A DNA stretch of 9,593 bases from Giardia intestinalis (taxonomy: Eukaryota): assembly GCA_000002435.2 (NCBI GenBank), contig AACB03000030.1; one strand, 5' to 3'. Positions 1 through 9,593 of this stretch are shown here, piece after piece. A program made the translations under genes and the position numbers. The first letter of the stretch is position 1, and each line of letters starts with the position of its first letter. The notes beneath the pieces were generated by a model. That model was not told the origin of the DNA and did no database searches. It worked only from the letters and a program-made list of their open reading frames with translations.

Positions 1-586
1 TCCTTCATAAATAAGGCCTCGTCAGCGCCCTCGCATCCTTCAAGCGTCTTCGCCACGCAGGTCGATGTCCCGTCGAGGGCCGTCCTGGGGGTCTTATTGG
101 TCCCGCAGTTAGTGCACTTCGGCTTCCCCGTGGCCTTGTCGAAGGAGCATGCCGTGCACTCTGCGTGTATCGTACTACATGCCTTGCATGTTCCCGACTC
201 CGGGTCAGCATAAGTGTTTCCATCGCATCCAGTATCTTGTACACATTGATTACTCTTCAGGTACTTCCCCTCTGGGCACGATGTACAATGATTCTGACCA
301 CTTCCATCGCAGGTCAGACAGGACTGATCACACTTCTCACATGTCTGAGCGTTCTTATAGTATCCATCTCTGCAGGTATCACACGTGGCCGCTCCTGGAC
401 TACCACTTGGTGCCGTACATGTGGCGCAGTTAGCCACCCCTGTATATCCATCTGCCCCATTGACATCATGACAGAGGATGCACTCGCTACCCTTCTCTGG
501 TGTTGCAGCCGGGTTCTGAACAGGCCGTTATCTGCCTTACAAGCAGTGCACAGTCCTCCCTCAGCCTTTGTGCATATCTCACTCCA
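1..586 (-). pseudogene. VSP-like cassette 0 (5' part only; the rest runs off the left edge of the window). Cys-rich, start-less, frameshifted.
   Basis: 1-517 is identical to 1913-2429, the N-terminal third of cassette 1 (..CTNCGTNKTPRTALDGTSTCV..GECILCHD..). The frame opens at Trp codon 584-586, directly after TAG (587-589 on minus). There is no ATG. A 1-bp deletion at about 518 (ttcagaac versus ttcaagaac) shifts the frame relative to cassette 1. Confidence 0.7.
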
Positions 587-637
587 CTATCATACTATCA
601 CCCTCTATCACACATTGTACAGCATTCACTACCTAAG
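587..637 (-). terminator. 51-bp inter-cassette spacer and 3'UTR. Poly(A) signal AGTGAAT (plus-strand attcact, 624-630). Three TGATAG motifs give stops in all three frames.
   Basis: Coding-strand sequence is TGA-CTTAGGT-AGTGAAT-GCTGTACAATGTGTGATAGAGGGTGATAGTATGATAG-TGG. AGTRAAY is the Giardia polyadenylation consensus. The same element recurs at every junction. Confidence 0.7.
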
Positions 638-2499
638 TCACGCCTTCCCCTGCACACGAACCACCAACACAAGAAGCCCACGAGGCCCCCCACGACAGCG
701 ATGACAGCCACGGAGATCCCTGCTATGGCACCAGTACTGAGGCCGCTCTTGTTGCCCCCGCTGGGCTTGGTGGACACGCACGCCTCACCCTCCAGCCTGT
801 AGTCGTCCCCGCACTGGCCGCACTTGTTCTCCTCGCTGCACCTGACGCACCCGTCGATATTGCAGGCGATGCACTTCGTTCCGTCTGTGTTCGGCCTCTG
901 GTCTTTACTGGTACAGGCCTCGCACTTATCGCCTGCTCCACAGTGCGAGCATCCGTCAACGGTACATGCGAAGCACCCGCTCCCAGCCAGGTTGGGCTTG
1001 TTGTTGTTGGTACACGCTGTACACACAGCAGCAGTCATACCAGTCTCAGATGGAGCTGCTGGGGCCGTACATGCCGAACAGCCATCTACCCCCACATATG
1101 CCTTAGAGGTATCACCAGTGCCTACTAGTGTGCCAAGGGAGTTGCTACATGCCAATACAGACTGATTCTGATTGGTTGCCCCAGGGACTATGAAGTACCT
1201 ATTGTTGGCATTAACAGCGGTACAGACACCGTTGGCTGCTGTCTTGCACATATGTTGTCCAGGTACTGTATCAACCTTGTAACAACCTCCCATATACAAG
1301 AAGTAGTTGTTAGTGCATTGTGTACATACACCTTGATCACATTGATTATTTGCTTTAGCACTATTACACTTCCCATCTATAGGATACGTATTAGCTTCTC
1401 CACAGTATGAGCAATAATGATGCTCTACACCCTTATCATCAATCACTATTGCATCGCAGGCACCAGAAGTTCCTCCACAGGCAGTATCATCTTCACAGAT
1501 CTTGGTGCATGTGACAGAGCCAGTACTGCCCTCCTTGCGATAGTTAGGCTTACAGTCAGTGCACTTGAAAGCACCGTTGTTAGAGCAGACACTGCAGCCT
1601 TCGCGACCCTTATCGTCTACGCTATCGCATGGGACGCACTTCTTCCCCTGTTGATCTGTAGTAGTTACTAAGAAGTATCCAGTCTTGCAGGTTTCACACT
1701 TATTTGGATCACCAGCAACAGAGCATGTGGCACAGTTATCACCACACTTGTCTGTACATGTACTAGTACCACTATCAAAGAAGTATCCATCGAGACAGGC
1801 TGAGCAGGTTGGATTGTCACTTCCTGTTTTCGTACATGTCTTGCAGTTGGCCTTTCCTTCGTTACCAAGAGTTGAATCTGTCACATCACTACAAAGAGCA
1901 CACGTTTTGTCCTCCTTCATAAATAAGGCCTCGTCAGCGCCCTCGCATCCTTCAAGCGTCTTCGCCACGCAGGTCGATGTCCCGTCGAGGGCCGTCCTGG
2001 GGGTCTTATTGGTCCCGCAGTTAGTGCACTTCGGCTTCCCCGTGGCCTTGTCGAAGGAGCATGCCGTGCACTCTGCGTGTATCGTACTACATGCCTTGCA
2101 TGTTCCCGACTCCGGGTCAGCATAAGTGTTTCCATCGCATCCAGTATCTTGTACACATTGATTACTCTTCAGGTACTTCCCCTCTGGGCACGATGTACAA
2201 TGATTCTGACCACTTCCATCGCAGGTCAGACAGGACTGATCACACTTCTCACATGTCTGAGCGTTCTTATAGTATCCATCTCTGCAGGTATCACACGTGG
2301 CCGCTCCTGGACTACCACTTGGTGCCGTACATGTGGCGCAGTTAGCCACCCCTGTATATCCATCTGCCCCATTGACATCATGACAGAGGATGCACTCGCT
2401 ACCCTTCTCTGGTGTTGCAGCCGGGTTCTTGAACAGGCCGTTATCTGCCTTACAAGCAGTGCACAGTCCTCCCTCAGCCTTTGTGCATATCTCACTCCA
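598..2499 (-). pseudogene. VSP-like cassette 1. Full-length Cys-rich ectodomain and TM, but no start codon or signal peptide. The CRGKA tail is destroyed by a 1-bp deletion.
   Basis: ORF 598..2349 in the track begins at a GTG. The frame is actually open up to Trp codon 2497-2499, preceded by TAG 2500-2502. Translation gives WSEICTKAEGGLCTACKADNGLFKNPAATPEKGSECILCHD.., many CXXC motifs, FLYMGGCY, CTKICEDDTACGGTSGACDA, then [34 protein letters not shown] followed by [15 protein letters not shown] instead of KA*. The expected stop is at 638-640. There is a cccc versus ccccc difference at about 647-651 relative to 2560-2564. No in-frame ATG with a hydrophobic leader. Confidence 0.75.
1082..2124. 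repeat. 1042-bp identity block shared with cassette 4 at 6571-7613. One mismatch at its 5' edge, otherwise identical.
   Basis: Track ORFs 1188..1376, 1417..1671 and 1668..1868 have identical translations to 6677..6865, 6906..7160 and 7157..7357, at a constant offset of 5489. The flanks at 2125 onward versus 7614 onward, and below 1082 versus below 6571, are clearly divergent. Confidence 0.85.
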
Positions 2500-7979: not shown

Positions 7980-8040
7980 CTATCACACTATCACCCACTA
8001 TCACCTTCTATCACCCATTGTACAGCATTCACTACCCAAG
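7980..8040 (-). terminator. 61-bp variant spacer and 3'UTR. It has one extra 10-bp TATCACCNNC repeat. Poly(A) signal AGTGAAT (plus attcact, 8027-8033).
   Basis: The sequence ctatcacactatcacccactatcaccttctatcacccattgtacagcattcactacccaag holds three tatcaccNNc decamers, against two in the 51-bp version. Confidence 0.65.
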
Positions 8041-9593
8041 TCACGCCTTCCCCCTGCACACGAACCACCAGCAGAGAAGCCCACGAGGCCCCCCACGACA
8101 GCGATGACAGCCACGGAGATCCCCGCGATGGCCCCGTGGAGAGCCCGCTCCTGTTGGTGCCAGAGGACACACACATGCCATCCCTCGGGACATAGCCTCC
8201 TCGCACTCCCCGCAGACGCCCTCTGCGCTGCACCGCATGCACCTCTCTATGTCACAGACAATGCACTGGGTGCCGTCCAGGCTGGGTCTCTGGTCTTTAT
8301 TGGTACATGCCTCACACTTGTTGTCTGCGCTGCAGTGAGAGCAGCCCTGGGCCGGACACACATAGCAGGTGCTTCCAGCCATGTTGGGCTTCTTATGTCC
8401 TCAGCACACACCTCGCACATCCCGTCGATGGCGCAGCTCTTGCACCCGCCGACCGCACACAGGGTGCACCCGCTGCCATCCTTGTTGGGCTTCTTCGTCT
8501 TGTCGCACGCACTACAGACCGCCGCGGCCATCGCATTGGCGGCTGGCGCCTGCGGGGCCGCGCACGCCGTGCAGTCTAGCACGCCGACGTACGCCTTGTC
8601 GCCCGCGGTCGCTCCCACAGGGTTGCCACAGGCAAGCACGGACTGCTGAGCAGCAGAGTCCCCAGGAATCTTGAAGTAGCGCCCGACCGGTGTGGTGCAG
8701 AACCACTTGGAGCCGCAGAGCACATGAGGTTGCCAGGAGCCTTCGACACATCATAGCAACCACCCATATAGAGGAAGTAGTTGTTGGTGCACCGCGTACA
8801 TACGCCATCGGCGCAGGTATTACCTGCAAGTGCATTGGTGCACTTCCCATTAATAGGGCCATAGCCGGCGCCAACACACTTTGAACAGTAAGAGAGCATG
8901 CTGCCGTCGTTGCCGACCACGATGGGCGTCGCAGGCCCCTGCTGTCCCTCCACATGCAGTCTCATCTTCACAGGTCTTTGTACATGTGAGGTCGCTAGGT
9001 TCTCCGCTGGGTCTGTAGTTGGGCTTACATTCAGTGCATTTGAGGGACCCCACGCCGCCTGTGCACTCGGCACAGCCTGGAATCCCACTTGTCTCGTCAT
9101 CACAGAGAACGCATGTCTTAGGCGGGCCATCCTTAAGGAGTACCCCGGCATGCATCTTGTACATGTGTTGATTTGACCCGCTGTTCCGCACTCTGCGCAG
9201 TTTCCTGTGCAGGCCTCGCAGGCGTTTCCGTTGACTTTTACCCGTCGACACAAGCCTCGCAGGTGCCTTTTGCGGTGCACAGCTTGCAGTTCTGGACTCC
9301 GCCCTTACCATTGTCGCCGCACTGCACGCACTTCGAGGCGTCGTAGAAGTGCGTCTTGCCCACTTTGCACTCGGCCTCATCAACACAGGTCGTTGTCCCA
9401 TCCAGCTCGTCTCTGACCGTCTTACTACCGCAGTCGGTGCACTTCGGCTTCCCGTGGCGTCGTCGTATGCACACGCGGTGCATCCTTGTATCTCACTGCA
9501 GGCCTTACAGGTCCAGGTCTTCTTGTCCGCATAGTTACCATTGTCACATCCACCAGCATCTACACAAGTGTTACCATCCTTCAGGTACTTCCC
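8041..9593 (-). pseudogene. VSP-like cassette 5. Partial (5' end lies beyond the right edge). GC-rich divergent subfamily, heavily frameshifted.
   Basis: Overlapping minus-strand track ORFs 8041..8382, 8247..8723, 8576..9280, 8850..9401 and 9238..9483 all carry VSP motifs (AYVGV, KKPNKDGSGC, NNYFLYMGGCY, CTKTCEDETACGGTAGACDA, GKPKCTDCGSKT). The TM region is thrown out of frame by two 1-bp deletions (cagcagagaagccc versus cagcagaggaagccc; gatggccccgtgg versus gatggcccccgtgg). The last 45 nt before the stop, and the 3'UTR, are identical to the other cassettes. Confidence 0.75.

Follow-up and report, generated by a model that had tools for sequence, protein, structure and literature searches.

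Start-less VSP-family units arranged head to tail in Giardia intestinalis, probably a segment of a ψVSP linear array

Introduction

A stretch of 9,593 nucleotides (nt) from Giardia intestinalis (NCBI GenBank assembly GCA_000002435.2, contig AACB03000030.1), analysed here over its whole length and called the window below, holds six consecutive head-to-tail units of the VSP family on its minus strand and raises the question of what VSP units that open without a start codon represent. An original prediction, made from the letters alone, had described these six units, all of which we find present, as silent donor cassettes that would add a recombinational layer to antigenic switching. The analysis reported here indicates that the window very probably belongs to a ψVSP 'linear array' of G. 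intestinalis assemblage A (WB-like), whose units have exchanged sequence with one another and with complete VSP genes over evolutionary time, whereas a role in switching runs against the available experiments.

Both the array structure and the idea of a recombination reservoir have been published before (2010, 2020). Adam et al. 2010 (BMC Genomics 11:424, PMC2996952) assigned more than half of the WB vsp genes to linear arrays whose spacers average 60 bp, and documented the arrays through directed sequencing and optical mapping; no downstream array member has an initiator, and a typical gene often stands first. The same authors described recombination among vsp genes and found telomeric vsp genes to be rare. 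They proposed that the arrays are a reservoir of cassettes or, alternatively, what is left of vsp genes no longer in use. Xu et al. 2020 (Sci Data 7:38) counted 208 ψVSPs, in arrays without start codons, against 133 complete VSPs in a genome that is 81% coding. The complete VSP genes of Giardia, ~133-136 in number, each have a signal peptide and do not occupy one expression site.

Results

For the description of the array, each unit was counted from the first base past a TGA stop through the next TGA, and tails and signals were located by scanning the reverse complement for CRGKA-like ends and AGTRAAY. Five CRGKA-like tails and five AGTGAAT signals, regularly spaced, were found within the window, and in a survey of its open reading frames (ORFs) all substantial VSP-like frames lay on the minus strand. 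Four units are complete and two are cut by the window ends. U1 (9593-8041, 1553 nt), cut at its 5' end, gave 519 codons without a stop after repair of its frame and ends in CRGKA. U2 (8040-6232, 1809 nt), U3 (6231-4418, 1814 nt), U4 (4417-2551, 1867 nt) and U5 (2550-638, 1913 nt, with one open frame of 620 codons) are complete and start-less, and U6 (637-1, 637 nt), cut at its 3' end, is a near-duplicate of the start of U5, with one mismatch and one single-base indel against the first 638 nt of that unit. The 5' end of U1 and the 3' end of U6 lie outside the window, and the array runs past both ends.

The attribution of the units to the VSP family is based on several features. A search with the U2 ORF returned 212 protein matches, essentially all of them Giardia VSPs. 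The best protein match, XP_001705784.1 (VSP, G. lamblia ATCC 50803), reached 99% identity; U5 is 99% identical to this protein, in which the CRGKA tail is intact. The matches assign the window to G. intestinalis assemblage A, to WB or a very close relative. Compared with the 2007 Sanger gene models the window is not letter-identical and differs at a few residues and at the sites of frame breaks, for instance with ACSNSLGT in the window vs ACENPLGT in the 2007 model. The ORFs of U2-U5 scored 60.8-145 bits against Pfam PF03302 (VSP), for a gathering cut-off of 31.4, their cysteine content is 11-12%, and each frame segment carries 16-28 CXXC motifs. YMGGCY was found in U1-U5, and the earlier statement that every unit has GGCY and CXXC holds for these five, U6 being cut before its GGCY position. 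Four of the five visible tails read CRGKA and a stop directly, and the tail of U5 needs one G restored; the transmembrane (TM) segment upstream of the U1 tail carries two frame breaks. AGTGAAT stands 12 nt past the stop in all five, so that the description of all tails as CRGKA or a 1-bp mutant of it, with a poly(A) signal, is confirmed for the visible ends and leaves aside only U6. The PF03302 score, CXXC and GGCY, together with the TM segment, CRGKA and the extended AGTRAAY poly(A) signal, place the units within the VSP family.

The order of elements at the junctions is near-invariant: CRGKA, TGA, AGTGAAT as the poly(A) signal, a spacer rich in GTGATAG, and then TAG-TGG-AGT-GAG. A 32-nt junction sequence, GGCGTGACTTRGGTAGTGAATGCTGTACAATG, occurred five times, compared to zero occurrences by chance in 200 shuffles. 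Directly 3' of each TGA lies CTTGGGTAGTGAATGCT, the flank normally found 3' of a VSP; at the single-copy VSP locus L001 the sequence matches this flank to its end and then diverges. The flank is followed by ~30 nt of GTGATAG-type repeats, the spacer closes with TAG, and the frame opens with TAG then TGG AGT GAG ATA TGC, reading WSEICTKAEGGLCTACK (WSEICTKAEGG).

All five spacers were located on the minus strand. The one between U1 and U2 (7980-8040) measures 61 nt and has AGTGAAT at 8027-8033, followed by GTGATAG-type 10-nt repeats. Those between U2 and U3 (6181-6231, AGTGAAT at 6218-6224), U3 and U4 (4367-4417, AGTGAAT at 4404-4410), U4 and U5 (2500-2550, AGTGAAT at 2537-2543) and U5 and U6 (587-637, AGTGAAT at 624-630) measure 51 nt each. 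A TGG opening directly after TAG, 51 bp past the preceding stop, had been predicted for every unit; the opening is as described and the length applies ahead of U3-U6, whereas one additional 10-nt repeat, also detected by Tandem Repeats Finder, brings the spacer ahead of U2 to 61 nt. The repeat with this 10-nt period (plus strand CCACTATCAC, minus strand GTGATAGTGG) is present in ~4 copies at 7977-8017, and the one extra copy relative to the other spacers indicates that the filler itself expands and contracts. The spacers do contain a poly(A) signal, as had been stated, but stops in all three frames are not general: ahead of U3-U5 the 51 nt hold stops in just two frames, the third being closed ~6 nt further on.

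Two ATG triplets recur in the spacers. In every unit one overlaps the poly(A) signal (AGTGA-ATG-CTG-TAC, e.g. 6210-6222, minus strand AGTGAATGCTGTAC), and in the window its frame is closed after five codons (MLYNV). In other WB arrays, GATAGT repeats hold the frame of this ATG open, which gives rise to 2007 models of the type MLYSDSDS...LLFMGGCY without a signal peptide (P0005, P0012, P0034 and P0121). The other ATG is part of CAATGTG, which occupies nt 21-27 in every 51-nt spacer (6205-6211, for example) and is one base off PyAatgTT; this ATG opens a five-codon ORF (MCDRG). The CAATGTG may be what remains of a VSP 5' end, or it may match by chance. As starts of the units the spacer ATGs were ruled out, all of them being closed after 4-5 codons. 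A GTG start for U2 was rejected as an artefact of the bacterial ORF-calling rule, and introns or trans-splicing as providers of a 5' exon were rejected for lack of evidence. Introns and trans-splicing are rare in Giardia.

The same junction architecture was present in two Illumina metagenome assemblies that are independent of each other, L002 (ERZ28595607) and L003 (ERZ27316335), whose junctions both read TGA CTCAGGTAGTGAATGCTGTACAATGTGTGATAATGGGTGATAGAAGGTGATAGAGG then GTGATATGCACAGCAGCC. We therefore consider that the junctions of the window are not an assembly artefact; loss of an ATG and leader ahead of each unit through mis-assembly had been named from the outset as a possible objection. 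The L003 unit is a single open frame of 610 codons, start-less and without a frameshift, and the L002 unit contains one genuine nonsense codon, between GVDGC and QC. JGI metagenome contigs, when scanned, had no match to the junction, and the look-up of P0024 led to an assemblage B contig with a different arrangement. That of P0004 led only to L001, an unrelated VSP locus, and exact-protein look-ups of a window ORF, P0007 and P0011 gave no match.

Neither a PyAATGTT initiator nor an in-frame start ATG nor a signal peptide was found at any unit start within the window (U2-U6), which bears out the earlier claim for all the starts that can be seen, the 5' end of U1 being outside. The first in-frame Met of U3 is codon 49, those of U2 and U5 are codons 191 and 194, and a hydrophobic leader follows none of these; in-frame ATGs are thus absent before codon 49-194, and the units do not have the ATG, initiator and signal peptide of an expressed VSP. 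Giardia promoters are very short, and the argument that the spacers leave no room for a promoter is weak alone; the missing initiator and ATG provide a better one.

It had been supposed that only the ATG and the leader were missing. The complete WB VSPs P0007 (KAE8304683.1, chr5) and P0011 open with a signal peptide, their first residues reading MFQLIPLFVASALMAAC, and complete VSPs have their first GGCY at residue ~95 and 'SEICT' just after it, at residue ~104-106, where P0042 reads WSEICT and P0043 WSEVCT. From this position of SEICT it follows that the units start ~105 codons into a VSP and that ~105 codons are missing. What is lost comprises the leader and the whole first Cys-rich module, and none of the units retains the first GGCY found in complete VSPs. 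Other WB array members join the VSP ~14 codons earlier, at '...LLFMGGCY', and have an open spacer. By the criterion of Xu et al. 2020, and judged from their sequence, the units are ψVSPs and not VSP genes. As they stand they would not be able to make a surface VSP, in agreement with the original prediction, as they have no initiator, ATG or signal peptide, and they are presumably silent.

Two observations on other VSP starts were made alongside. Other G. duodenalis assemblies contain dozens of 'partial' VSPs that all start at one point, (V/M)NDPAGVSIDSLCRPSSSPQA, ~65 residues before SEICT (P0008, P0013, P0018, P0031 and P0035 among the protein search matches), which suggests a second array family, probably of assemblage B, with a different and equally conserved truncation junction. 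In addition, the stand-alone VSP P0004 at L001 9940-10010 (ENA ERZ28528424), in gene-dense surroundings, retains signal-peptide core codons (...FLLIPLFAVSTIA) and has GCC where its WB relatives have ATG, the gene caller having begun at GTG. P0028, from another assembly, carries the P0004 frame far upstream. The isolate of L001 has possibly lost the start codon of P0004.

Tracking of the VSP-like frame revealed nine breaks in U1, one each in U2, U3, U5 and U6, and two in U4. On the minus strand those of U1 are at 9450, 9238, 9138, 8924, 8701, 8395, 8195, 8131 and 8075, and those of U2-U6 at 6534 (U2), 5704 (U3), 4315 and 2985 (U4), 646 (U5) and 516 (U6). All 15 are single-base changes, with 14 deletions and 1 insertion, and at least 11 lie within homopolymers of 2-5 nt. 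The expected one to three frameshifts per unit were observed for U2-U6 and were exceeded in U1, where the density of breaks is ~5.8/kb vs ~0.75/kb elsewhere. The sole defect of U5, at ~646, shortens G5 to G4 inside the CRGKA codons. With all 15 breaks repaired, the frames amount to 3,113 codons free of internal stops, and each of the five visible tails ends in CRGKA and a stop. The open frames have thus been retained, as had been claimed. At the U5 and U3 break sites, AAN52102.1 and the Sanger-era WB proteins P0001, P0121 and P0122 continue without interruption, P0121 and P0122 doing so at the U3 site (~5704). A whole-database search with repaired U4 found no near-identical protein (best overall identity 67%). 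The 15 breaks, all of 1 nt, may be sequencing errors and not mutations; the single-base breaks are likely to be long-read homopolymer errors, at least in part.

The first break of U4 (4310-4320, U4 nt ~103) coincides exactly with a mosaic breakpoint. Up to TGTAAG, U4 is identical to U3 and U5, and from CAGATAACAAGTAC onward it is U2-like; the base deleted at the breakpoint is the single position that distinguishes the two parental types (G or A). This break could be an exchange scar or a coincidence. Phase-variable homopolymer switches were also considered for the frame breaks and rejected, the runs being only 2-5 nt long.

Comparison of the units with one another showed a strongly uneven distribution of similarity. 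Among U3-U6 the first ~120 nt, made up of the spacer and ~70 nt of coding sequence, show 98-100% identity. The last ~90 nt have an identity of 85-98%. The termini are thus homogenised. The interiors of the units are 40-75% identical, and the most-alike pair switches abruptly along their length. A perfect tract of 1,037 nt is common to U2 (6577-7613, U2 nt 428-1464) and U5 (1088-2124, U5 nt 427-1463), both on the minus strand, while its flanks are only ~50-80% identical; it suggests that a segmental duplication or a gene conversion took place recently. When polymorphic sites were permuted in a GENECONV-like test, p<=2e-4 was obtained for all six pairs among U2-U5.

Long identical tracts were also found between the units and complete, signal-peptide-bearing WB VSPs, which the original prediction had proposed to look for as counterparts; P0007, P0011, P0083 and P0042 all have tracts in common with units. 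At the protein level, the repaired stretch 8099-8984 (minus strand) of U1, its residues 204-498, is identical over 295 residues to residues 433-727 in the C-terminal part of P0007 (KAE8304683.1), with six single-base indels and no substitution. At the same level, 142 residues of U3 (5627-6051, minus strand) equal residues 148-289 of P0011. U3 further has 454 consecutive residues identical to AAN52102.1 (VSP S7). U4 has 125 identical residues with P0083, 69 with P0042 and 143 with P0012, and is built as a mosaic whose tracts match P0012, P0083/P0042 and P0011. These runs of 69-295 identical residues common to array units and signal-peptide-bearing WB VSPs show that array units and complete genes have exchanged sequence, and an exchange over evolutionary time, both among the units and with complete VSP genes, is supported at the level of sequence comparison.

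The ratio of nonsynonymous to synonymous divergence (dN/dS) between units was 0.18-0.39, with dS from 0.27 to >2. This indicates that the interiors have diverged under protein-level constraint, the ends remaining near-identical. Neutral drift of dead tandem copies does not give constrained interiors together with near-identical ends. The constraint fits repeated import from functional genes or selection upon export to them, and the data fit both alike.

Finally, scans of the window for Rfam families and tRNA genes found none. Two long ORFs lie opposite the VSP frames on the plus strand, at 3801-4793 (330 aa) and 7777-8649 (290 aa); the long plus-strand ORFs had no Pfam match, and these antisense ORFs are probably a by-product of VSP codon composition. 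The G+C content is 0.58-0.62 across 8001-9500 (U1) and 3001-3500 (part of U4) vs 0.45-0.54 elsewhere, and the G+C-rich U1 is also the unit with the most single-base deletions.

Discussion

At least two adjacent head-to-tail units, very short spacers and downstream members that have neither initiator nor start codon characterise the window, and we attribute it with high confidence to a ψVSP linear array of WB-like assemblage A. Its origin can be pictured as follows. A founder unit would have arisen by an illegitimate join of the 3' flank of one VSP gene, consisting of the stop, the AGTGAAT poly(A) signal and the GTGATAG-rich filler, to codon ~105 of another, just past the first GGCY module. This founder would then have been amplified head to tail by unequal crossing-over. 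Without initiator, ATG, signal peptide and first Cys-rich module, the downstream units are expected to be silent. Their near-identical ends, the spacer and ~70 nt of coding sequence at the 5' side and the TM-CRGKA-poly(A) block at the 3' side, would supply the homology for segmental conversion and unequal exchange. The array would thus most likely be a silent pool of ectodomains, trading sequence over evolutionary time with the VSP genes that can be expressed, and not the switch itself.

Several points weigh against this attribution. The low dN/dS and the absence of stops are equally explained by an array that merely receives sequence from functional genes. The silence of the locus is deduced from the letters and by analogy with G. 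muris, and the first member of the array, possibly an expressible head gene, lies outside the window. The reading of the frameshifts as sequencing errors is circumstantial. A role in antigenic switching, in turn, runs against the available experiments. Of the original prediction of silent cassettes kept under conversion, mosaicism and exchange with complete genes are upheld, and the part in switching is not; the additional recombinational layer finds no support, as nothing shows exchange during switching and the switching that has been published took place without rearrangement.

How much of the apparent decay is biological depends on the quality of the sequence. That the frame breaks are sequencing errors, the units in truth being uninterrupted start-less ORFs and the 'decay' an artefact of long-read assembly, is the explanation to which we incline. 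All 15 breaks are of 1 nt, 14 of them deletions and at least 11 in short homopolymers, and U1 has six indels yet no amino-acid change over 295 residues compared to P0007. The Sanger-era WB proteins and AAN52102.1 are intact across the U5 and U3 sites, and the Illumina-assembled L003 unit has no frameshift. PacBio homopolymer frameshifts were fixed only where enough Illumina reads mapped (Xu 2020), and several nanopore assemblies of AI isolates exist. Against this, the density of indels is very uneven between U1 and the rest, genuine slippage mutations also prefer homopolymers, and the pVSP catalogue of Rodriguez-Walker et al. (bioRxiv 2022.03.07.483299) contains, in a polished reference, pVSPs split over three frames and others in arrays, the splitting being ascribed to evolution. 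A more radical doubt concerns the array as such, whose head-to-tail junctions could be VSP reads mis-joined via the conserved 3' end. VSP repeats are hard to assemble, and the 2007 neighbours XP_001705783 and XP_001705784 do not fit the unit order of the window. However, the recurrence of the junction type in two independent Illumina assemblies, the many 2007 Sanger-based models that start in the spacer (MLYSDSDS...) and the documentation of arrays by directed sequencing and optical maps (Adam 2010) leave this explanation with hardly any credence.

Taking the array as real, its function can be sought in several directions. In the one closest to the original prediction, the array is an active donor archive, from which cassette segments are copied by mitotic gene conversion into expressed VSPs during infection or culture. 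The cassettes are start-less and open with homogenised ends, long identical tracts are common to units and complete VSPs, gene-conversion tracts were found to be enriched in VSPs in assemblage A populations (2025 population study, PMC12669663), and the hypothesis is already voiced in the literature. On the other hand, expressed vsp genes hold their chromosomal position through switching, vspA6 and vspC5 having switched without a change of location and without the need for duplicative transposition (Adam et al. 2010). Giardia has no single expression site but ~133-136 complete genes, current reviews describe the control of VSP switching as based on RNA interference (RNAi) or epigenetic, the synteny of VSP positions between the AI isolates WB and Be-2 argues against very rapid turnover, and the window gives neither rate nor direction of transfer. 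We hold such an archive to be very improbable. A concrete form of it, in which the units are live donors with conversion anchored on the 'SEICT...GSECILC' 5' block and the TM-CRGKA 3' block and yielding mosaics on the time-scale of an infection, appears quite improbable to us. If it were true, the U1/P0007 and U3/P0011 tracts would be footprints of donation events, and a layer of recombinational diversification would lie atop the RNAi-based or epigenetic switching. The opposite possibility, that the units are inert debris, i.e. truncated duplicates without a role that are passively overwritten from functional VSPs and thus acceptors and not donors, we regard as rather unlikely. [quoted passage not shown] Yet the absence of nonsense codons from 3,113 codons and a dN/dS of 0.2-0.4 demand frequent overwriting or a recent origin, the junction architecture is maintained in independent isolates, G. 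muris has analogous arrays, and 208 ψVSPs, more than the 133 complete genes, would be surprising as junk in an 81%-coding genome. Transcription of the array, sense or antisense, to feed RNAi or microRNA control, without a function as DNA donor, would agree with the abundance of antisense transcripts over VSP genes, with the RNAi components implicated in VSP control and with the 3' blocks conserved in all VSPs. The window, however, gave no Rfam match and no Pfam match for the plus-strand ORFs; moreover, G. muris ψVSPs are essentially untranscribed, and open frames and a dN/dS <1 would be left unexplained. The chance that this regulatory role is the right explanation seems slight indeed.

The cassette hypothesis goes back at least 15 years. 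The window adds no new idea to it; it adds quantified mosaic tracts that can be used as markers and precise cassette boundaries, from codon ~105 to CRGKA. It also adds a warning, as frameshifts of arrays in long-read assemblies are not to be taken for biology without read-level support. If ψVSP arrays do feed expressed VSP genes, the repertoire would be open-ended and not fixed at ~130-200 genes, which would bear on chronic infection and on VSP-based vaccines.

Among the closest known systems are the linear or ψVSP arrays of G. intestinalis WB, which are alike in head-to-tail order, in spacers of ~60 bp (here 51 nt four times and 61 nt once), in downstream members without PyAatgTT initiator, start codon and signal peptide, and in the conserved CRGKA tail with the extended poly(A) signal. 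Members are near-duplicate or very divergent in both, with evidence of recombination, and the best protein matches of the window are WB gene models from such arrays. Nothing essential differs; only the point at which the VSP is joined, 'WSEICT' in the window, lies ~14 codons further downstream than the '...LLFMGGCY' of the others. The arrays of G. muris (Xu et al. 2020, Microb Genom 6:mgen000402, PMC7641422) are likewise tandem pseudogenised VSPs, essentially untranscribed and with phylogenetic evidence of recombination or conversion with intact VSPs; their authors draw an explicit parallel with T. brucei and Pneumocystis and propose a role as silent reservoir. Unlike the dispersed arrays of G. 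intestinalis with its ~133 intact genes, those of G. muris are almost all telomere-adjacent and have the tail GCRGK, and intact VSPs number only ~26 in that species. Borrelia vls, Anaplasma msp2 and T. brucei VSG also comprise arrays of promoter-less, start-less and mostly open cassettes with conserved flanks that could guide segmental conversion and with a mosaic relation to expressible genes, and the window, a start-less cassette array homologous to the variable region of expressed-type genes, resembles them in this respect. In those systems, one or a few dedicated expression sites are used and unidirectional conversion during infection has been shown experimentally, whereas Giardia has >130 complete genes, no dedicated expression site, switching without rearrangement and an accepted model of RNAi-based or epigenetic control. 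The resemblance is one of architecture, as read here from the DNA, and is not claimed for the mechanism.

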